Part shown: one piece after another, positions 3,770-19,428 of the stretch
Layout of the letters: every line of letters begins with the position of its first letter
Numbering within the stretch: position 1 is the first letter of the stretch
IMG/VR virus record: IMGVR_UViG_3300038755_000021
Location: 1 to 64,000 of that record
Source: an uncultured virus (IMG/VR IMGVR_UViG_3300038755_000021)
Taxonomy: Duplodnaviria; Heunggongvirae; Uroviricota; Caudoviricetes
Length of the DNA stretch: 64,000 bases
Reading direction: 5' to 3' (one strand)
The notes under the pieces: generated by a model
Database searches by the model: none
Told to the model about the DNA's origin: nothing
The model's input: only the letters and a program-made list of their open reading frames with translations
Translations under genes and position numbers: made by a program

Positions 3770-3919
3770 TTAAATGAAAATAATTGTTAATAACCATAAT
3801 ATAGTTAAAATCCATGTTGTATATTTTACTAATGAATCATCTTTAAACTCTAAAGATATTATTTCTCTTAAACCAATAATACACAATGGTATTATTACGA
3901 ACAATGTTACATTTATCAT
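3770..3919 (-). CDS. Small two-TM protein, paralog of 6608..6763
   Basis: MINVTLFVIIPLCIIGLREIISLEFKDDSLVKYTTWILTILWLLTIIFI. Confidence 0.7.
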   Translation of the reverse strand: MINVTLFVIIPLCIIGLREIISLEFKDDSLVKYTTWILTILWLLTIIFI

Positions 3920-3993: not shown

Positions 3994-4158
3994 TTAATTT
4001 AGTGGTAATATTTTATTATTATTTATCCATTTTCTTAAAAATAGAACACTTTCTAGTGCTCTATCTTTTATTTCAGAAATAGATTTATCAGGATTTACTA
4101 TTAATAAAGCCTGGATATTCTTTTTTAATAATTTTTGTTCTAAAGAGTTTAGTTTCAT
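3994..4158 (-). CDS. Hypothetical 54 aa protein (not in track)
   Basis: MKLNSLEQKLLKKNIQALL...; ATGA overlap with the upstream ORF. Confidence 0.55.
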   Translation of the reverse strand: MKLNSLEQKLLKKNIQALLIVNPDKSISEIKDRALESVLFLRKWINNNKILPLN

Positions 4159-4747
4159 ATGATTAAGATATTATTGACAGTTGATAAACAGTCTATAAAA
4201 TAGACATTATTTTCATACTCAATATCTTCTACACGTGTATGTCCTACAATATGTGTACAGTTATCTATTTTACACTTTTGTAGAGACCTCGGTCTTATCC
4301 ATACTGGACTTTGACTTACATTATCTCCTGATGGATCTATGCCTTCAAAACAAAATGCTGGTTGTTTATATTTAAACATTTCATTTATTTCAAAGACTAG
4401 ATTTTCTAATGGTTGATATGGATCTATATCATAGTTTTTACACCATATTTTTGATACTCCTGCATGAGAACACAGGTAATTATCAAATGTATATGACATT
4501 TTTAATATATCCATATTTTGAAGCAAGAGTTCTCTTATTTGAAATGAATATATTGGTTGATATCCACTATATCTTTCTTGACTAACATAATCTTATCAAA
4601 ATCTCTAGAATATTTACATATGTCTAGAAAGTTTGACATTTGTTGGTCTGCTGATATATCCCGAGAGTCAAAATAATCTCCTATGAATATATCTGGAAGA
4701 AACTGTTTCCATACAGTTCTTCCATGTGTATCACCTATTATTTTCAT
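4155..4747 (-). pseudogene. Calcineurin-like metallophosphoesterase, frameshifted by an internal deletion
   Basis: GDTHG and GDYFD in one frame; YSGYQP, HAG, WIRP and GHT in another; GNH motif missing at the junction near 4580. Confidence 0.75.
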
Positions 4748-4752
4748 ATTAT

Positions 4753-4845
4753 TTAATTTAATTTATCATATAATTTATTATATAATTGAACATCTAATTC
4801 ATTACTTAATTCAATACTTAATTGATTATCTAATTCATTAAATGA
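4753..4845 (-). pseudogene. Headless tetrapeptide-repeat ORF remnant
   Basis: SFNELDNQLSIELSNELDVQLYNKLYDKLN*; no start codon; in frame directly after the stop of 4846..5187. Confidence 0.55.
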
Positions 4846-5187
4846 TTAATTGTTTTTTACAATATTAACTTCAATAAAGCTCCCATTTTTTAATTGGGCT
4901 TTTTCCCAGTTATTAGTTTTATACTTGGCTTTTACACCAAGTTTTCTTAATATATCTTCAGTAATACAGTTACTATAAGTAACTATTTCAGCACCCTCAA
5001 AAGGCTTTTTGCTAAATATAGCTCCCCAACTTATTACACTACCAATATATTTTCTTGTTATTTTACCTCCATTAAGGAAATATTTTAATGATCCTTTATT
5101 AGGTGATAACGTTGGTAACAAGGCTATTCCTGTTAGAGTATGGTGCCCAATAACACCAGATCTCTTAATGTAAATTTTGTGATTCAT
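4846..5187 (-). CDS. Hypothetical protein
   Basis: 113 aa ORF with an A-rich leader. Confidence 0.7.
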   Translation of the reverse strand: MNHKIYIKRSGVIGHHTLTGIALLPTLSPNKGSLKYFLNGGKITRKYIGSVISWGAIFSKKPFEGAEIVTYSNCITEDILRKLGVKAKYKTNNWEKAQLKNGSFIEVNIVKNN

Positions 5188-5269
5188 ATTAAATAATTTA
5201 AATTGTTAAACTTTATAGAGTGTATATTAATGTATAAGATTAATTTCACCTATTTAATAAATTGTAAAT

Positions 5270-5292
5270 TAACACTCCTTATATATAGTATA
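5270..5292 (-). repeat. TAACACTCCTTATATATAGTATA motif (identical copy at 6344-6366; related copies at 6255-6270 and inverted at 5370-5387)
   Basis: Direct sequence identity. Confidence 0.85.
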
Positions 5293-5541
5293 TCATTTTT
5301 AGTAAGCAGTAATCAGATATCTTCAAGTTAACTAATTAACTGTATCCACAAAACCTACTAAAACATTACCTATATAAAGGAGTGTTAATTAACAATCCTA
5401 AATATATGAAAACAAAATAAATGTTCAAAATAACTTTGTTTCTTATTACCAACCCCCTTATTACAATTGTAATATATGTAAAACTGCATAGAGTACAAAG
5501 TGAAAAACTCCCCCTCAGTTTATTTACAGGTAACATTATTA

Positions 5542-5711
5542 CCCTCTGCACTCAGTTTTAATGACAGACTCAATAACTTAGAGTTTCTTGGACTTATTTA
5601 TTTCAAAAAGTATCCTACTGTCTACTTTAGGTGTTATAACCTAATATTACTATGAATTTCTCATAGTTCAATTACAACTGCTCATCCTTGGGAAATGAGA
5701 ATGGTGCATTA
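5542..5711 (-). ncRNA. Twister-ribozyme-like RNA, copy 1, with a large branched P5 insertion
   Basis: UAA-UGCA-CC-AUU-CUCAU-U-UCCC-AA-GG-AUGAG-[stem]-AG-UGCA-GA-GGG. Confidence 0.55.
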
Positions 5712-5738
5712 CTTTAGCTATAGTAATGTTATTTATTT

Positions 5739-5797
5739 AAAAAAATGGTATAGCACTTACCAGCAAATTACTGTTGGTTTTATAGTACTATACCATT
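5739..5797 (-). terminator. Long hairpin / intrinsic terminator
   Basis: AATGGTATAG...CTATACCATT stem with a minus-strand U-tract. Confidence 0.6.
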
Positions 5798-5850
5798 ATA
5801 TTAATGGTCTGAATAACAATAATATATATATATATGTTATTCAGAGATTT

Positions 5851-5906
5851 TCTAAGCAACCGTAACCTACTTAGATTTACTTAACTTGGTGATCACGGCT
5901 ATCACC
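5851..5906 (-). ncRNA. Two hairpins with complementary loops
   Basis: GGUGAU/AUCACC and UCUAAG/CUUAGA stems; loops CCGUG and UACGG can pair. Confidence 0.4.
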
Positions 5907-5980
5907 TAACGCTAGAAGCCTTGAACCTAGGTACCAGGTATGCAAGCTGACTTGTGGCTTACAATTTCTTTTTTTATAAC

Positions 5981-6057
5981 TAAATAACTGTACCAACATG
6001 CATACTCAACCAATATTCCCATGGAATTATTGTATACACATTGATACAGATTATTTA
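5981..6057 (-). ncRNA. Repeated hairpin with CAAUAA...GAG internal motif (other copies 6427-6463, 6470-6538)
   Basis: CUGUAUCA/UGGUACAG stem conserved; inner stems differ in sequence but still pair. Confidence 0.55.
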
Positions 6058-6060
6058 GAT

Positions 6061-6182
6061 TAATTGCAATAGTCTTCTTGAGAGAATAAATAGTAAGTTC
6101 TCACCTTACCTAAATGTCAGGATTAGATATTATCACCTGATTCTGGCTTTCATTTATACCAGCATTTAAACTATTACAATTA
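6061..6182 (-). ncRNA. Multi-stem RNA with a three-way junction and an H-type pseudoknot
   Basis: 13-bp closing stem; UAAAUG/CAUUUA, CUGG/CCAG, UCAGG/CCUGA; GGUAAG/CUUACU crossing GAGAA/UUCUC. Confidence 0.55.
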
Positions 6183-6184
6183 TT

Positions 6185-6255
6185 TCACTCTGCACTCAAT
6201 TGTAATACATGTGGTTACAATTGCTTACCCTTGTGAAGTAAGTTATGGTGCATTA
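6185..6255 (-). ncRNA. Twister-ribozyme-like RNA, copy 2 (compact)
   Basis: UAA-UGCA-CC-AUAA-CUUAC-U-UCAC-AA-GG-GUAAG-CAAUUGUAA..UUACAAUUG-AG-UGCA-GA-GUGA. Confidence 0.6.
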
Positions 6256-6276
6256 CACTCCTTATATATATAATCA

Positions 6277-6316
6277 AAAAAGATCTGGATCAACAATAAA
6301 TGCCAATCCAAACCTT
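6277..6316 (-). terminator. Intrinsic terminator (homologous to 6549-6587)
   Basis: GGUUUGGAUUGGCA...UGUUGAUCCAGAUC-UUUUU. Confidence 0.65.
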
Positions 6317-6548
6317 AACTAATTCATTATCTAACTTATTATGTAACACTCCTTATATATAGTATACATTTATCTTTTATAGACTAAATGTCAGGTTAAA
6401 CCTGACAAAATGACTATAAACAGTAAATCTGCATACTCTATATTAGGCTTTATTGATACAGATACCCAGTAAACTGTACCAATACACACACTCATCTAGA
6501 ATACTCTAGCTTATTGTGCATGTAATGATACAGATTAAATGTAATTAT

Positions 6549-6587
6549 AAAAAAAGTCTGGACCAACAAAGTTGGCTAGCCCAACCT
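6549..6587 (-). terminator. Intrinsic terminator
   Basis: GGUUGGGCUAGC...GUUGGUCCAGACU-UUUUUU. Confidence 0.6.
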
Positions 6588-6607
6588 CATCAATCCAGGC
6601 TTATGTT

Positions 6608-6763
6608 TCAAATATTGTAGGCTACTACTGCTAGTAGCCATATAGCAACCAGAAATCCCATTACCCATTTTATCATGGGTGTTTCTTGGAATTCCAATTT
6701 AACTATCTCTCTTGTGCCAAATAGGCACAAGGGCATGATGAAATATAAAGTAAATGCTATCAT
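6608..6763 (-). CDS. Small two-TM protein, paralog of 3770..3919 (not in track)
   Basis: MIAFTLYFIMPLCLFGTREIVKLEFQETPMIKWVMGFLVAIWLLAVVAYNI. Confidence 0.7.
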   Translation of the reverse strand: MIAFTLYFIMPLCLFGTREIVKLEFQETPMIKWVMGFLVAIWLLAVVAYNI

Positions 6764-6783
6764 TGCTTATTTTTAAAGGTTAG

Positions 6784-6824
6784 AAAAAAGACTTAACACT
6801 ATCAATGACAATAGTGTTAAGTCT
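6784..6824 (-). terminator. Intrinsic terminator
   Basis: Perfect 14-bp stem AGACTTAACACTAT/ATAGTGTTAAGTCT plus U-tract. Confidence 0.8.
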
Positions 6825-6836
6825 GTTAAAAGGGGT

Positions 6837-7019
6837 TTAATCCCCTATGTTTCTTAGCGCAGCCTTTGGGACTGCGATTTCAGCTCCCTCAGTGAGGGTT
6901 TTGAACATTTCTTCTGTGCACTGAGCAAGACGGTTAATTACCCATCCACCCTCGGTGGACTGGAGTGTTAACCAGAACTTGCCGGATTCTGAAACAGATT
7001 TCTTAATTACTTTATACAT
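6837..7019 (-). CDS. Small hypothetical protein, first gene of the leftward block
   Basis: MYKVIKKSVSESGKFWLTLQ...; the track's upstream extension crosses a non-coding-looking repeat. Confidence 0.65.
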   Translation of the reverse strand: MYKVIKKSVSESGKFWLTLQSTEGGWVINRLAQCTEEMFKTLTEGAEIAVPKAALRNIGD

Positions 7020-7085
7020 TTCATTTAGTTTAGAGCACGGGGAGACATTTCCCGTGCCAATGATTAAAGGGGGTGTGGGTGTGCC

Positions 7086-7207
7086 GACTACTAACAAACA
7101 ATAACATTTATCACTTTTATATATATAATAATGGCGGGGGTAATTATAATGACTATTAACAAACAATAACAATTTTGTACTTTGATATATATATAGTAGT
7201 AGGGGGG
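7086..7207. repeat. Imperfect tandem duplication (65-bp spacing) ending in G-runs
   Basis: GACTAyTAACAAACAATAACA...ACTTT.ATATATATA.TA.T...GGGGG at 7086-7140 and 7151-7207. Confidence 0.85.
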
Positions 7208-7713
7208 CTATTTATACCCATTTACACCCCAATCTCTGTATAAACCAACCCAATATAATATAGTTATGGGGTACAGACCCTATATTTATTCCTCTATATC
7301 CACACTTTTAGCTATAGTTTTGCGGATTTATTTTACTATTTTTTCATTAATTACTTGTACACTAGAAACTAATATACTATTTTTACACCAATTATTTCTC
7401 AGCGGAGTTTATACTCCCCAATCCATTACCCCCAGTTTCAAGTTGAAAAACAGAATTTGTAAGGACTTTGATGGATGATGTGATATAATCTTAGTCTCCC
7501 TACCTAATGGTCAGTAAAGGGACATTGAAAACCAGGAATCTAAGTTTTATTTAAAATATGATTTCTAGGTGTTGCTGGGCAACTTAAAACAACTGCTAAG
7601 AGAAGGAACATATAGGAATAAGGACATAAAAAAGTGATGCGCTGAATCTCCAGCGTTAAATTTCTTTTGCCATTTTTTAAGATAACTATTATTTAATCTT
7701 CTAAATATTAGGG

Positions 7714-8484: not shown

Positions 8485-8823
8485 TCATTTTGTTGAAAGC
8501 TTCTTTAGCCGCAATAATGCTTTTCTTTCTTTTTGCAGCTGCTTCCTTATGTCCTTTTCTATTTTTTGACTTTGGCATAAATTATCTAAATAAGTGTTTA
8601 ATAATAATCCTACTATATATTGATTTTTAAATTTCTGTCTGTAAGAATACATCTTTGACATTGTATAATTCTTTGCAAATACTGATAACTGCTTTTGTAT
8701 TTTTCCTTCAAGAGTAATAGTAATAGAAATGGTTTTAGTTTCTATTCCTGCCTTCATATAACCATCATCAAAAAAGTAATTTGAAAAGTAATATGTACCC
8801 CTATATTTTTCTATATGCATCAC
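8485..8823 (-). CDS. Hypothetical protein
   Basis: ORF overlapping the nuclease stop codon. Confidence 0.6.
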   Translation of the reverse strand: MMHIEKYRGTYYFSNYFFDDGYMKAGIETKTISITITLEGKIQKQLSVFAKNYTMSKMYSYRQKFKNQYIVGLLLNTYLDNLCQSQKIEKDIRKQLQKERKALLRLKKLSTK

Positions 8824-10091
8824 TTTGTTGCTATTGCTTTAATTTCTGATCTTAAATAGTTTAATTTATACATCTGGTTAAAGTGGTGGAAACTTAAGTC
8901 CCTAACTCTAAAGCCAAATTCTTCTAACATCCAGGCATAAAAGCTAATCTGCAGGTTATAGTGTATATAATTACAGTCAGCTAAATGAGATAAAGGTGGT
9001 TTCATCTTCTGATTCTTATAAGCAGATCTCTTAATTTGACGATTTGTATTATGTGTTTTAATATAATTATACCCTGCTAAATAAGTATGATCAGGACTGT
9101 CTACTGCTATACATTTAGTATCTACAGTTGGTACCTTTTCTATTTTAGTAATGAAAACATCTTGCCAACAATTCTTACTTGGATCAAGAAAACCGTTATT
9201 TAAAACTGGACATTTTATTTTTAATGTTGACTTTTCATTATATAATTCTTCAGTAGTCAATACTCTATCTGTAAAGTATAGATTATTGTCTCTAACTTCA
9301 TTATCAGTAATTACCCATTTATGTTCATGATCACAAATAATAGGTTCACCTCTACTAAAGCTTATTTTATAACAAGGATTATTATGTATTTCAGAGATGT
9401 GCTCTACTCTGGTTGGATAACCATTACCATCAAAGACAATGTCCCCGACATTAATATTTCTCATCTGAGCCCAAACAACATTGGGATTATTACTAACTCT
9501 GGTTGCTATTGGAGTATCTAGTGCTAATCCTTTGTAATCGTCAATATCTATATATCTTATATCCCCAATAGTCTCAATAAATACTTTATCTGCTTGTCCT
9601 GCAATGGTATTATCTTCATTCCAGATTAATAGTTCAGGATAAAACCCATCTTTTAAGTCATAAAGATCTTTTAATAGATTAGTCTTATCTCCAGTCTGAA
9701 CTTCTGTTATTTCAAACTTTTTACCATTAAATGGGTTTATCTCAAAACCCTGGTCATAACTCATAGCTTCTCTAGATTCATGGTATAAGTTACCCTTATT
9801 TATACTTTTAAGGTTATTCTCTCCCCAGGAATCTAATATCTTATTTTTTTCTATAAGAAGAAGATTAGGATCTACATGTTGGATAGCATATTGAATAAAA
9901 TCAGGACTATCTATATTCCATCCCTTCTTGAATGTCTTAAAATCAGGAATTAAAATCTCTAAAGCTTTATAAGTACTCCAATGTTCTTGGTTAAACTCAT
10001 TCTTATATTTACTTAATAACTTACTAACTGAGGTATAAACTTTATCCCCAGCTGTATATCTATGATCCTCTTTTGAGAATATTATTTGCAT
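8820..10091 (-). CDS. PD-(D/E)XK nuclease with a mini-intein
   Basis: SVS..L, G...H, PE, IAGQAD, D-Y-K|T and Y.LQ.S.YA motifs. Confidence 0.85.
   Translation of the reverse strand: MQIIFSKEDHRYTAGDKVYTSVSKLLSKYKNEFNQEHWSTYKALEILIPDFKTFKKGWNIDSPDFIQYAIQHVDPNLLLIEKNKILDSWGENNLKSINKGNLYHESREAMSYDQGFEINPFNGKKFEITEVQTGDKTNLLKDLYDLKDGFYPELLIWNEDNTIAGQADKVFIETIGDIRYIDIDDYKGLALDTPIATRVSNNPNVVWAQMRNINVGDIVFDGNGYPTRVEHISEIHNNPCYKISFSRGEPIICDHEHKWVITDNEVRDNNLYFTDRVLTTEELYNEKSTLKIKCPVLNNGFLDPSKNCWQDVFITKIEKVPTVDTKCIAVDSPDHTYLAGYNYIKTHNTNRQIKRSAYKNQKMKPPLSHLADCNYIHYNLQISFYAWMLEEFGFRVRDLSFHHFNQMYKLNYLRSEIKAIATK
9048..9530 (-). mobile_element. Class 3-type mini-intein (161 aa, no endonuclease)
   Basis: Starts GLALDTPI after DYK; has HKW, KCIAV and KTHN|T. 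Confidence 0.85.
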
Positions 10092-15022: not shown

Positions 15023-18000
15023 AACCTGTAAGGTTATTTCCAGAGCTATATAGCATTTCTGATTTTATAAATAAAGAATATCCAATACTGCATCCAGATA
15101 CTGTTGAGTATGCTGAATATTGGAAACAAGAAGAAATTTTCTGTCTAGAGGGCAAGTGGGGACATGACTATTTAGACAATAAGGGAGGGTGGCGTTTTTG
15201 CCCACCTTCCCTTTACTTTTATGTCAACTACTGCATTATTCTAGATGAAGATGAGAAAGGAAAGAGTATTGATATTATACATCCTTTATTGAGAGATATA
15301 GAATGGATAATAAGTTATGGATATTTAACATGTCAAGGATTTTCAGGATTTGAAAATGATGAGGAATATACATGTAATAGATTAGTTGATAAATTAGAAA
15401 AAGGAATTGAACTTTCTCCAAAAGAACTTATAAATTTAAAATCCTCTGATCATATTTTAAAAAAAGATGGGACATATAAAAAATATATAGAGAGTAGAGA
15501 ATACTTATATAAAACTTTTAGTGAACCTCTTGGTAAACCCATATATGAAAATGATTTAAAAAATCTGTTTATATTAGGATCAAGATCAACGGGGAAAGAT
15601 TTAGAAGAAAATACAATTGTATATACTGAAACAGGAGAATGTAAAATTAAAGATGTTAATATAGGGGATAAAATATACGGTAAAGATGGTAAATTAACAA
15701 ATATTACAAATAAGTTTAATTTTAATGATCAACTTCAATATAAAATTGAATTACAAGATGGTAGAGAAATTGAATGTGGTGGTGGACATTTATGGAATGT
15801 AAGAAGTCCTGGAACTAGTAGTAAATTTAAAACATTAACTACTGAGTTTCTATATAATAATATAAATAAAAGAATACGCACAGATAAGATTAATCATAAA
15901 AATGAATCCTATTGGTTTATACCAAATAATAATCCAATAGAATATGATGAAAAAGAATTACCAATAGATCCATATCTATTAGGATTATGGTTAGGAGATG
16001 GTTCCAAAAATAGAGTTTCTATCACGAGTGCAGATTCTGAAATAGTAAATTATATCTATGAAGTTGCAAAACATTATAATCATAAGGTAACTTTAAATTT
16101 TAATAAATATAAAACGTGCCCAACATATCATATAACAGAAGGACGTGGTAAGCATGATCGAGAACTTGTTAATGAATTTAAAAAGTTAAATTTATTAAAT
16201 AACAAGCACATACCAGATATATATTTAAAATCATCTATAAATCAAAGAATAGAATTACTGAAAGGTTTAATGGATAGTGATGGTAACAGTAACATAGGAA
16301 CTAATAATTGTGAATTTTCAAACTCTAATAAAAGAGTAATTGATGATTTTGAAAAATTAGTTAGAAGTTTAGCTATATCATGTAAGATAAAAAGTAAAAT
16401 TCCTACTTTTAAATATAAAGAAAAATTAAAATATGGAAAAATATCATATAGAGTATATTTAAGACCAGAGTTTTGTCCATTTAAATTACAGAGAAAAGTA
16501 GATTCATATGTTTATGATAGTTCTAAACATAAAACAAAGAATTGTATTGGTATTAAATCTATAACCCCTACTACTATAAAACCATCTGTATGTATATCAG
16601 TAGATAATAAAGACAATTTATTTATAGCAGGGAACTATATTGTTACACATAATAGTTTTATAATTTCTGGTATAATGGCCCATTGTTATAATTTCTATAA
16701 CAAAAAATATTATGATGATAAATATTTAATATCTCCAGCACCTGCAGAGATATTAGTTGGTGCAGCTCAATCAGCAAAGTCAGCTGAATTAGTAAAGAAA
16801 TTTCTAAACATACAAGAATATTTAAAGACCAATCCTGGGTCTTTTGGAAAAGGTAAAGATTTTATTCCAGGTTATTTTTATAATAACTCAATGGGTAAGT
16901 CTTCTCCTAACAACGTTGACTCTCCTTATAGACACGAGTACAAAGTACAAGAGGGTAGGATATGGGTTAATAAAGGTACTGGTACAAAATTATTACATGT
17001 AGCTTATGGTGATAACCCAGAAGCTGCCGTTGGTTATAGACCTAATTTATTAATAATAGAAGAAATCGGATTATGTTCTAATTTATTACAAATACATTCT
17101 TGTTATGGGGAAGATACAAAAATAAGAATGCTTGATACTTCGTTAAAAAATGTTCAAGATATAAAAATAGGGGATAAAATATTAGGACACGATGGTACAG
17201 AAAGAAATGTTAAAAATACATTTTCAGGAATTGACCAACTATATAAAATAAAACAAAGAGGGGGGATTGACTATGTATGTAATAGTTTACATAATGTGAG
17301 ATATTTTCAAAAATGGGGAAAAAATGCAACAATATCTAACGGGGAGCATGTAAAAACAGCAGAAGAAATATACAATTTCTCTAAAACAAGAAAGCGCAAC
17401 ATATATGGATTAAAATCAGGACCTTTGAATTTTTCTAAAAAGAATTTATTGCTTGACCCATATTATTTAGGTTTATACATTGGAGATGGGGTTATTAGAA
17501 GTGGGGGTATTGTAATACAAAATTCTGAAAAGACAAAATTGTTGTCTGAATGGGTAATAAATTATTTTAAATCATTAGATTTGAAAACACATTTAGATTT
17601 ACGTCCAAATTGCCCACTATATAGACCTACAACAGGTAAATTTACCGGAGGATATAATAGAAATTATATAGTTGCAACTTTAAGAAATTATAATATTCTT
17701 AATAAAAAAGAAATACCAACTGATTTCTTAATGTCTACTGAAGAAGATAGGTTGAAATTATTAGCAGGAATAATTGATAGTGATGGAACCTTTTGTAAAA
17801 GACATGGGGGAAGAAATTATGTAATATCTGTTTCTGGAAGAGAACACTTATCAGATCAAATTAGATTTTTAGCACAATCTTTAGGATTTAAAGTTAGTTA
17901 TTGTAAACATTTCTCTGAAGAAAAAAAATACAAAACTAGAGAAATAATAACAATTAGTGGAGATATAGAAAGAATACCTGTATTATTACCTCATAAAAAA

Positions 18001-19428
18001 TGTAATTTTAAAAATTCACATTATTCTACTATAACATGCGGATTAAAAATAGAAAAATTAAATGTTGGTAAATATTATGGTTTTACTTTAGAAGAAGATA
18101 GTAGATTTTTAGGAGAAGATAATACTGTATTGGAAAACTCTAATGAATTAGCACTTATTAGGAGAAATAGAACTGGGATATCAATATATCTAGGAACATC
18201 TGGAGATATGGATAAAATAGTAGAATCTAAAATTTTATTTGAAGATCCAGACTCATATGATTTTTTATCTTATACAGATATTTGGGAACACAGATCTAAA
18301 CCAATAGGATTATTTATTCCAGCTTATTATGCGGATACATCTTTTAAAGATGATAAGGGTAACACAGATTTAGAATTAGCATTTCAACAAGAATTAATAA
18401 ATAGGAAAAAGAAAGAACAAGCTTCTTCTTCAGCAGCTTTAGATGGTTATATGATGTCAAGACCATTGGTTCCTTCAGAAATGTTTTTATCATCTACAGC
18501 TAATCTTTTTCCTTCAGCTAAATTAAGACAAAGAGAAGCTGAAATAGAAACTAGAAATTTATTTGATTTATATGCTTCTATAGGAGATTTAGAATGGGCA
18601 GATACTGAAAAGAAATCTGTTAAGTGGAAAGAAGATTTAACATCTAGTAGAACTCATAGAGTTATACAGACAATGAATCTTGATCAATATAAACATAATA
18701 TTAATGGAGTAATAGTTATATATGAACATCCTCCTGCATTAATTCCTAATCCTACTTATAGAAAATCATTATATAAAGTTGTATATGACCCTGTAAAAGA
18801 TGACAATGGTGGAACATCATTAGCATCTGTAATTGTATACAAAGGTTTATCAGAGAATTGGAATGCTGGTATACAAGATGGCATAGTAGCTGAATATATA
18901 GGAAGATATGATAAAGTAGATGATATGCATGATTTAGTATTAAAGATTGCTCACTACTATAATGCAACAGTTTTAGTTGAAAATAACATTCCTGGATTTA
19001 TAAATTATTGTAAGATAAATGGGTATGTACATAAGTTACAAATATCTCCTTATGAAGCAATATCAAAAGGAATGGTTACATTTTCTAGAAAATATGAGTA
19101 TGGAGTAACAATGTCAAAACAATTAAATACTCATTGTGAGCAATTAATAAGACAATGGTTATTAGAACCTTGGAAAAAAGAAGATGATAAACTTCTTTTA
19201 AATTTAGATAAAATTTATTCTCTAAGGATAATTAGAGAGTTAATAACATATGAAAGAGATAAAAACTTTGACCACGTTTCTTCTCTTAAGCTTTTAGTTT
19301 TATGGTTATCTCAAGAAAGAGATATAACATTTAAAGAAGAAGATATTCAAAATAAACAATATGATGATCTAAATAAGTACTTTAAAAAAGTAATTACCCC
19401 CACACAAAAAAATCCCTGGTTTTTATGA
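15019..19428 (+). CDS. terL: Terminase large subunit with two inteins
   Basis: Walker A GSRSTGK|S, Walker B LLIIEE, coupling motif GTSG, nuclease YDP/ENN/NFD motifs; frame open from 15004, probable ATA start at 15019. Confidence 0.9.
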   Translation: MKPVRLFPELYSISDFINKEYPILHPDTVEYAEYWKQEEIFCLEGKWGHDYLDNKGGWRFCPPSLYFYVNYCIILDEDEKGKSIDIIHPLLRDIEWIISYGYLTCQGFSGFENDEEYTCNRLVDKLEKGIELSPKELINLKSSDHILKKDGTYKKYIESREYLYKTFSEPLGKPIYENDLKNLFILGSRSTGKDLEENTIVYTETGECKIKDVNIGDKIYGKDGKLTNITNKFNFNDQLQYKIELQDGREIECGGGHLWNVRSPGTSSKFKTLTTEFLYNNINKRIRTDKINHKNESYWFIPNNNPIEYDEKELPIDPYLLGLWLGDGSKNRVSITSADSEIVNYIYEVAKHYNHKVTLNFNKYKTCPTYHITEGRGKHDRELVNEFKKLNLLNNKHIPDIYLKSSINQRIELLKGLMDSDGNSNIGTNNCEFSNSNKRVIDDFEKLVRSLAISCKIKSKIPTFKYKEKLKYGKISYRVYLRPEFCPFKLQRKVDSYVYDSSKHKTKNCIGIKSITPTTIKPSVCISVDNKDNLFIAGNYIVTHNSFIISGIMAHCYNFYNKKYYDDKYLISPAPAEILVGAAQSAKSAELVKKFLNIQEYLKTNPGSFGKGKDFIPGYFYNNSMGKSSPNNVDSPYRHEYKVQEGRIWVNKGTGTKLLHVAYGDNPEAAVGYRPNLLIIEEIGLCSNLLQIHSCYGEDTKIRMLDTSLKNVQDIKIGDKILGHDGTERNVKNTFSGIDQLYKIKQRGGIDYVCNSLHNVRYFQKWGKNATISNGEHVKTAEEIYNFSKTRKRNIYGLKSGPLNFSKKNLLLDPYYLGLYIGDGVIRSGGIVIQNSEKTKLLSEWVINYFKSLDLKTHLDLRPNCPLYRPTTGKFTGGYNRNYIVATLRNYNILNKKEIPTDFLMSTEEDRLKLLAGIIDSDGTFCKRHGGRNYVISVSGREHLSDQIRFLAQSLGFKVSYCKHFSEEKKYKTREIITISGDIERIPVLLPHKKCNFKNSHYSTITCGLKIEKLNVGKYYGFTLEEDSRFLGEDNTVLENSNELALIRRNRTGISIYLGTSGDMDKIVESKILFEDPDSYDFLSYTDIWEHRSKPIGLFIPAYYADTSFKDDKGNTDLELAFQQELINRKKKEQASSSAALDGYMMSRPLVPSEMFLSSTANLFPSAKLRQREAEIETRNLFDLYASIGDLEWADTEKKSVKWKEDLTSSRTHRVIQTMNLDQYKHNINGVIVIYEHPPALIPNPTYRKSLYKVVYDPVKDDNGGTSLASVIVYKGLSENWNAGIQDGIVAEYIGRYDKVDDMHDLVLKIAHYYNATVLVENNIPGFINYCKINGYVHKLQISPYEAISKGMVTFSRKYEYGVTMSKQLNTHCEQLIRQWLLEPWKKEDDKLLLNLDKIYSLRIIRELITYERDKNFDHVSSLKLLVLWLSQERDITFKEEDIQNKQYDDLNKYFKKVITPTQKNPWFL
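15598..16653 (+). mobile_element. Class 3-type intein with LAGLIDADG endonuclease, in TerL Walker A (352 aa)
   Basis: Starts DLEENT; has HLW, VCISV and VTHN|S; LGLWLGDG and LKGLMDSDG. Confidence 0.9.
17101..18138 (+). mobile_element. Class 1 intein with LAGLIDADG endonuclease, after TerL Walker B (346 aa)
   Basis: Starts CYGEDT; YYGFTL; ends VLEN|S; LGLYIGDG and LAGIIDSDG. Confidence 0.9.

Follow-up and report, generated by a model that had tools for sequence, protein, structure and literature searches.

In the first 64,000 nucleotides (nt; called the window below) of the 72-kb IMG/VR virus record IMGVR_UViG_3300038755_000021, the minus strand between positions 5190 and 6607 carries two copies of an uncatalogued RNA family, here termed the Unit. 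The Unit is built as a three-way junction with a pseudoknot, and one of its stems is open and carries cargo. The RNA island around it is real and consists mostly of lineage-specific hairpins, together with the two Unit copies and one copy of a second conserved RNA, module G. Our best reading is that 5190-6607, on the minus strand of the early region, encodes stable small RNAs as an island like the early long non-coding RNAs of the cultured crAss-like phage phi14:2.

Fold and covariation of the Unit

Covariance model R1 of the Unit matched exactly two copies in the window:

6185..6255, minus strand: Unit 1, with a minimal 9-nt apex in helix P2 (R1, 80.4 bits, E 1.2e-19)
5541..5711, minus strand: Unit 2, with a 114-nt cargo in P2 (R1, 87.8 bits, E 1.1e-21)

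Read along the minus strand, both copies consist of UAAUGCACCAU, a hairpin with the loop UUC(C/A)CAAGG, CA(G/A)UUGUAA, an insert, UUA(C/A)AA(C/U)UG, and AGUGCAGAG(G/U)G. The fold comprises four helices. P0 pairs UGCAC with GUGCA; P1 forms a hairpin whose stem covaries freely and whose loop reads UUCCCAAGG; P2 pairs CAGUUGUAAU with AUUACAACUG and has an apex open to any cargo; and the pseudoknot joins the loop UCCC to the 3' tail GGGR. Unit 1 is a compensated pseudoknot variant, with the loop UUCACAAGG and the tail GAGUG.

Covariation had been named beforehand as a test of the original prediction of a structured RNA locus, and all four helices (P0, P1, P2, and the pseudoknot) covary. The alignment comprised 63 Units, namely 61 loci and window Unit 1 (taken from 96 distinct Units, with inserts of up to 78 nt) plus window Unit 2. 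Across it, 99.3% of cells paired, versus 30 to 52% with slid partners. Every pair of P1 covaries (5/5), and the covariation score was reached by none of 500 shuffles. In the pseudoknot, the loop CAC was matched by the tail GUG in 4/4 Units and the loop CCC by GGG in 93/93 (one with the tail AAGGG); a fifth CAC/GUG case was found in locus L064. P0 is invariant among the Units selected by pattern and covaries in the divergent copies found by R1 (UGCGU/ACGCA, UGUGU/ACACA, CCACA/UGUGG, and UGUAC/GUACA). The G-U and U-G pairs of the Unit would be A-C mismatches on the opposite strand, and the flanking genes share the strand of the Unit. Because G-U pairs occur on that strand only, the Unit folds on the gene-sense strand.

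The 5' edge of the Unit is sharp, with U at -3 in 101/107 copies, A at -2 in 103/107, and A at -1 in 103/107, while sequence further upstream is variable. In 68/107 copies the Unit is immediately preceded by the end of a hairpin, versus 21% of shuffles. Behind the tail, a base preference is seen at +1 and +2 only, with weak R/U/A-T preferences at +1 to +5.

None of the 4,227 families of Rfam 15 matched the 64-kb window at the gathering threshold. A search at E ≤ 10 with permissive filters over the 2.5-kb span 4800-7300 returned just unrelated eukaryotic microRNA and small nucleolar RNA models. The best sub-threshold match was a microRNA model on a hairpin of the island described below (H-B), at 31 bits against a threshold of 75.

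Distribution and cargo

The scan of viral contigs used only the 5'-half pattern of the Unit, with the 3' half serving as an unscanned check. At least 120 uncultured viral contigs matched. Among the matches listed, 109 had the 3' half within 260 nt, and with the two window copies these gave 97 distinct Units. A second or third copy lay within 3 kb on the same strand at 14/80 loci, and each of five near-complete genomes (CheckV, 96 to 100%) held one sense-strand R1 match. The Unit was not found in 50,697 GenBank phage records, and 1 of 185,579 species genomes contained it, on a 4.6-kb contig of a metagenome-assembled genome. A literature search by topic retrieved no description of the Unit, and its sequence words occurred in no relevant paper.

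Ten large contigs that bear Units measure 89 to 124 kb, and in 9/10 the capsid protein is 21 to 34% identical to that of the window. PHROG matches within the window include a large terminase (with an inserted domain), a portal, and a major head protein. We read the window phage and the Unit carriers as a broad clade of environmental crAss-like phages. The Unit is among the most strongly conserved sequences shared within this uncultured clade.

The contents of P2 are highly diverse. Among the matches listed, cargos range from 9 to 185 nt (median, 71), and the 97 cargos fall into 84 unrelated clusters. Two contigs collinear with the window, X5 (1,637 nt, DNA) and X6 (3,341 nt), carry 72 and 238 other nucleotides at the apex of Unit 1. 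An RNA of the cargo type also occurs in the window outside P2:

6061..6182, minus strand: domain D, a multi-hairpin RNA of the cargo type whose closing stem is P2-like, directly behind Unit 1

At locus L094, the cargo in P2 of the Unit shares 80% identity with domain D over 127 nt, with loops changed and stems kept. At locus L090 (333-420, plus strand), a tRNA-like body (Rfam tRNA, 47.4 bits) lies inside P2, with P2 as its acceptor stem and 16 extra nucleotides in the anticodon loop. The cargo swaps, the likeness between domain D and L094, and the tRNA body of L090 therefore identify P2 as an open slot. Such a slot resembles the variable stems found in the hatchet and other small ribozymes; it could equally make the Unit a carrier of functional RNAs. 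ARAGORN found no tRNA in the Unit core, the L090 cargo is the only one that qualifies as a tRNA, and a T-loop-like motif was present in 3/97 cargos. A search of the phage's own 72-kb genome for antisense targets of the cargo and the other modules yielded nothing beyond chance (best match, 14 nt). An apparent skip of 5561-5676 in one sequencing run (X7) was considered as a strain difference and rejected: the 195-nt contig shares only the conserved Unit halves and is the Unit of another phage.

Genes near Units are small, lie on the same strand, and are unrelated between loci, with the commonest cluster present at 14/80 loci. No conserved partner protein was detected among them, and 24 cluster representatives had no informative Pfam match. 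Many loci have tRNAs, often Arg-TCT, within 3 kb of a Unit. At loci L009, L039, and L074, the ~60 nt before tRNA-Arg(TCT) share a motif (GCGUGCACC ... ACCGCA ... AGGUGUAAUA.UCUG), which may be another small RNA or a leader. A further conserved element with two hairpins, module E (L147-L178), is absent from the window and was found on 32 viral contigs. It consists of CCCUAGAAGCGGGG followed by a hairpin with the 20-nt loop GAUAUAAUGCGAAGUGAAAC and usually a U-rich run. No Rfam family matched module E in the 20/32 contigs scanned, and a Unit stands directly behind it at 12/32 loci.

Module G and the hatchet slot

The second conserved RNA of the island follows Unit 2:

5432..5534, minus strand: module G, a conserved pseudoknot RNA directly behind Unit 2, homologous to 15 viral loci

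A pattern scan for G gave these 15 viral loci with 10 distinct G sequences, and the fold was assessed on 11 sequences. One helix closes the fold, which also holds three nested helices and a variable hairpin; a pseudoknot forms where the loop CUUUGC pairs with the 3' tail GCAAAG. Over the 11 sequences, 96.5% of cells paired and 10 pairs were changed on both sides, which establishes G as a family. One C-G pair of the pseudoknot is a compensated U-A in the window.

At the other G loci, the G tail GCAAAGUU is followed by a hatchet ribozyme or a Unit in every case (15/15). A hatchet stands immediately behind G at 8/15 loci (79.8 to 82.7 bits), a Unit begins 2 nt behind G at 5/15 (including the atypical L138, which has an insertion), and a Unit follows after a spacer of ~150 nt at 2/15. 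Hatchets also occur 0.9 to 1.5 kb upstream of the Unit, on the same strand, at 5/25 Unit loci scanned; across related loci the hatchet model scores 78 to 83 bits. Islands of the same make-up in related phages thus hold a proven self-cleaving ribozyme. The hatchet model, which is built on helices P1 to P4 and the conserved UGGGG and AGACGUUAAAAU strands, had no match in the window or in the whole 72-kb record.

The Unit is positionally equivalent to the hatchet, and this equivalence is the main reason to consider a shared job: the sharp 5' edge of the Unit occupies the place of the hatchet. The hatchet is reported to cleave at the 5' end of its motif (PMC6561176; PMC6154101). A cut at that site directly behind G would leave G ending in its own pseudoknot.

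Possible roles of the Unit

We put the chances at about even that the Unit acts in cis to set RNA ends. The island would be read together with the flanking early genes, and terminators T1, T2, and T3 and motif M (all listed below) would cut it into short units. The Unit would separate an upstream structured RNA or gene from the downstream sequence, either through self-cleavage at its 5' edge or close to it (the region of the UAA/UGCACC junction) or by serving a host RNase as a fixed handle, and module G would be one RNA released in this way. That the ends would be set by self-cleavage, making the Unit a possible new self-cleaving class, is a more tentative proposal drawn by analogy with the hatchet. 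We are similarly cautious about the suggestion that the Unit takes over from the hatchet the trimming of a knotted small RNA at its 3' end while accepting any RNA into P2, a tRNA-like body included, which would make it a natural processing cassette. To our knowledge, the known small self-cleaving ribozymes fall into no more than about a dozen classes, several of which have been found by looking beside known ones. The Unit is in this respect a concrete candidate self-cleaving ribozyme, and a core that tolerates 9 to 185 nt or more of foreign RNA could be a natural scaffold for RNA expression.

Several observations weigh against a role in end formation. Models of known ribozymes do not recover the Unit at E ≤ 10. 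Within the window itself, G precedes neither a Unit nor a hatchet; Unit 2 stands before G, and Unit 1 stands directly behind motif M. The blocks are reshuffled between phages, with the hatchet and its downstream RNA occurring with or without G, and the 15 G loci amount to 10 distinct G sequences, so few independent events underlie the slot argument. The near-invariant P0 and P2 helices could equally mean protein recognition, and P2 with its cargo as a tRNA in L090 points to RNase P or a scaffold, not to self-cutting. Cleavage products, RNA ends, and strand-specific reads were not observed in the contigs compared. From a metatranscriptome run, a single contig of 178 nt aligned within the 1.8 kb compared, at 6009-6176 (part of H-B and domain D), and the parts left uncovered carry no conclusion. 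This contig covers no Unit, is strandless, and may be carried-over DNA, and it is therefore a weak hint. We infer cleavage and transcription in the window, as well as the role of motif M; self-cleavage there goes no further than inference because no ribozyme family matches the window and the 72-kb record holds no hatchet.

In a different account, the Unit is a stable trans-acting RNA whose core is a protein handle and whose P2 cargo is the working part (a decoy, tRNA mimic, or sponge), with no processing. We regard this account as improbable, though a serious contender. It would explain why P0 and P2 are almost invariant in sequence among carriers whose capsids are 21 to 34% identical to that of the window, and why each of the five near-complete genomes has one sense-strand match. 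It also accommodates the great diversity of the cargos (84 clusters/97), the recurrence of some with loops changed and stems kept, the tRNA-like body that uses P2 as acceptor stem, and the different Unit 1 cargo of collinear relatives. However, the Unit has no protein gene as a constant companion (the commonest cluster reaches 14/80 loci, and the 24 representatives were uninformative in Pfam), minimal cargo-free Units exist (window Unit 1 and L064), complementarity of the cargo within the phage's own genome is at the level of chance (best, 14 nt), and the slot shared with the hatchet is left unexplained. A cis-acting 5' leader of the downstream gene, acting in 5'-end protection, translation enhancement, or ligand sensing, would instead draw on what follows the Unit. 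In 35/82 Units, an ATG-initiated open reading frame (ORF) of at least 40 amino acids (aa) starts 27 to 55 nt behind the tail, with 32 nt the commonest distance, and the first ATG beyond the tail falls most often at +31 to +36 (18/98). This spacing also counts against the end-setting role, and the compact pseudoknotted fold is aptamer-like. Nevertheless, the downstream genes are small and unrelated, other Units are followed by a tRNA (L069), another Unit, or more non-coding RNA (both window copies), and past +1 and +2 no conserved candidate expression platform was seen behind the tail. We therefore consider a leader unlikely.

It is also conceivable that conservation acts on the DNA, as a promoter, a hairpin signal for a virion RNA polymerase, a recombination site, or an origin. 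The 3' half of the Unit reads as TTACAA, 15 nt, and a weak RTAWW box; Units sit between terminator-like hairpins and gene starts, which is promoter territory; relatives differ at the P2 apex; and the early transcripts of phi14:2 are reported to share no upstream motif (10.1101/2020.03.07.982082). This reading is nonetheless very unlikely. Four helices covary, including pairings across up to 185 nt of cargo and the pseudoknot, and G-U pairs occur on one strand only. There is no -10-like box at a fixed distance, and the GC skew of the window turns near 10-11 kb, away from the island. A promoter hidden in the 3' half specifically was considered and rejected, as only the weak R/U/A-T preferences at +1 to +5 were found. 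The original prediction had called the elements at 6255 and 5711 twister-like. A compact fold with a pseudoknot, set in an RNA island, is what such ribozymes would offer, but no twister model (types P1, P3, and P5) matched at the gathering score (64 kb), and neither twister nor any other ribozyme model matched at E ≤ 10 in the permissive search of 4800-7300. The Unit moreover has a single supported pseudoknot, where a twister has two, and its own conserved nucleotides, and there is next to no chance that these elements are twister-type ribozymes.

Comparison with known systems

The closest counterpart of the Unit is the hatchet (RF02678). Both lie on the same strand within shared phage RNA islands, and both can take the place directly behind G. 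They also have in common a conserved core with a single hairpin that is open and variable, the sequence GUGCAGA after this hairpin, and CCC/GGG pairing with the 3' end. Like the Unit, the hatchet is known only from metagenomic sequence (PMC6154101). The two differ in strand order, with P2 and P3 nested in the hatchet and P0 and the pseudoknot crossing in the Unit. The Unit also lacks the P1 helix and the 12-nt AGACGUUAAAAU strand of the hatchet, and the hatchet model does not match it. Because P1 and this strand are missing, a rearranged (non-circularly permuted) hatchet, an idea taken from PMC10085705, is not supported despite the shared GUGCAGA and CCC/GGG. Pistol and hepatitis delta virus-like folds were likewise rejected, as hand threading gave a misfit in strand order and no model matched.

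Phage phi14:2 offers a parallel at the level of the island. Two long early intergenic regions of this phage are reported to reach higher transcript levels than most genes, with levels lasting through infection; the function of these RNAs is given as unknown, and the early transcripts have no common upstream motif (10.1101/2020.03.07.982082). The phi14:2 record has a 1.7-kb gene-free gap at the early intergenic region, and the window likewise has a long gene-free early stretch in the sense of the early genes. Unlike the window, phi14:2 has no Unit (best R1 score, 13.9 bits, on a palindrome). The Unit offers a first handle on these unexplained, abundant early RNAs. The phi14:2 gap (L146; NC_021806, 4031-4502, plus strand) also contains a full-length match to transfer-messenger RNA (tmRNA), at 46 bits against an Rfam threshold of 47 (E 3.6e-16).

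More broadly, the island resembles phage islands of ribozymes, tRNAs, and small RNAs, in which separately folding RNAs form a chain whose members are gained, lost, and rearranged among relatives. In related islands, tRNAs (often Arg-TCT) and a ribozyme co-occur, whereas the window island has neither a tRNA nor a catalogued ribozyme, and both of its conserved members (the Unit and G) are uncatalogued. RNase P-dependent formation of 3' ends behind a protective structure is known from the MALAT1 triple helix with the tRNA-like mascRNA and from the P1 c4 and P4 CI RNAs. The arrangement of G resembles this in that its 3' end lies in a protective knot with a putative processing element directly behind it, and P2 of L090 is a tRNA acceptor stem. 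Unlike mascRNA, the Unit core has no cloverleaf, and the T-loop-like motif is confined to the 3/97 cargos mentioned above.

Other elements of the island

The remaining elements of the island and its edges are listed in transcript order, with folding z-scores computed for the minus strand against 200 shuffles:

6789..6824, minus strand: intrinsic terminator behind the gene 6837..7172, a 16-pair stem followed by TTTTTCT
6550..6598, minus strand: terminator T1, homologous to T2, an 18-pair stem and U-run (z -5.0)
6468..6540, minus strand: long hairpin H copy A (H-A), a paralogue of copy B (z -5.1)
6370..6430, minus strand: hairpin, inverted repeat I1 (z -3.9)
6346..6361, minus strand: motif M copy 1 (TATATATAAGGAGTGT in RNA sense), exact repeat
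6274..6316, minus strand: terminator T2, a 16-pair stem and U-run (z -5.7)
6255..6270, minus strand: motif M copy 2, ending on the base with which the conserved part of Unit 1 begins
5982..6056, minus strand: long hairpin H copy B (H-B) (z -6.0)
5803..5850, minus strand: AT-rich palindromic hairpin, inverted repeat I3 (z -5.6)
5745..5797, minus strand: terminator T3, a 14-pair stem followed by UUUUUUU (z -5.2)
5262..5400, minus strand: inverted pair of motif M (M3, 5272-5287; M4, 5371-5385), inverted repeat I6, 95% complementary (minimum free energy, -42 kcal/mol; z -5.9)

The original prediction of a minus strand tiled by structured elements was borne out: eight of the listed elements fold well beyond shuffles (z -3.9 to -6.0), and the span 4800-7400 holds 11 terminator-like sites, versus 1.1 ± 1.1 in shuffles. 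The long terminator-like sites with U-runs lie on the minus strand at 6824-6789, 6598-6558, and 6316-6280, with a further terminator at 5797-5745. Compensating changes between duplicated elements, also proposed at the outset, are real in the pair once called twister-like, in H-A/H-B, and in T1/T2. A pair of kissing hairpins (5962->5856) dropped out, as it folds no better than shuffles (z -1.2). The broader proposal of a phage small-RNA locus on the minus strand holds, with separately folding elements of which some are conserved in many phages. The functions suggested along with it (protein sponges, anti-defence RNAs, or antitoxin mimics) gained neither support nor contradiction.

H-A, H-B, T1/T2, and the AT-rich hairpin are lineage-specific, without counterparts elsewhere. 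A pattern scan for hairpin H in other phages gave six matches, all of them unrelated sequence or chance. In the relative X5, substitutions within H-B are partly compensating and partly disruptive.

Motif M (ACACTCCTTATATATA) has three exact copies, at 5272, 6255, and 6346, and an inverted near-copy at 5371-5385. No further copy occurs in the 72-kb record at ≤2 mismatches, and the motif is absent from the 120 other loci examined. Its copies stand before a 70-nt stretch that ends at T2, abutting Unit 1, and 85 nt before the gene that begins at 5187. One relative lacks 6255-6345, the segment between the two direct copies, and another has a 279-nt insertion 3 nt behind copy 1. Motif M is probably a phage-specific promoter or boundary signal. 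The inverted pair could form a 139-nt RNA hairpin or act as back-to-back promoters.

Gene content and genomic context

CheckV estimates the completeness of the viral record at 59%. The window has a GC content of ~30%, with minus-strand genes at 1-10.6 kb and plus-strand genes beyond. DNA near-identical to the island region is present in wastewater and activated-sludge metagenomes from several studies. GenBank phages contained no DNA similar to it, and a search of viral contigs with the flanking proteins found no close relatives. ARAGORN detected no tRNA or tmRNA gene in the window.

The island was originally described as a tract poor in ORFs at 5190..6830, and most of this tract stands. From 5190, at the start of the gene 4846..5187 (minus strand), to 6607, ORFs are short, overlapping, and at most 61 aa under translation table 11. 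A recoded gene was excluded, since the stretch remains closed under both TAG=Q and TGA=W. The upper end of the tract is occupied by a gene:

6608..6763, minus strand: a real small gene for a 51-aa membrane-type protein, outside the RNA island, 43% identical (E 4e-15) to the ORF 3770..3919 (minus strand)

Because this ORF is a real gene, the gene-free part is reduced to ~1.4 kb. The two paralogous genes of ~50 codons, 3770-3919 and 6608-6763, both hydrophobic at both ends, flank the RNA island on either side.

Other features of the window lie outside the island. Two direct repeats ~65 nt apart (GACTAYTAACAAACAATAACAWTT ... TATATATATA ... G-run) occur at 7086-7216 (plus strand), beside or over the start of the ORF 6837..7172 (minus strand), and may be promoters or a regulatory repeat. 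At 4155-4747 (minus strand), a NinI-like Ser/Thr phosphatase extends over two adjacent ORFs, one of 70 aa with GDTHG and one of 123 aa with a match to PHROG 246; the gene may be split or interrupted. The terminase (15289-19428, plus strand) is 1,379 aa long, with two matching halves several hundred residues apart and an intein-like look, and a 423-aa early protein (8820-10091, minus strand) matches the same inserted region of terminase families.

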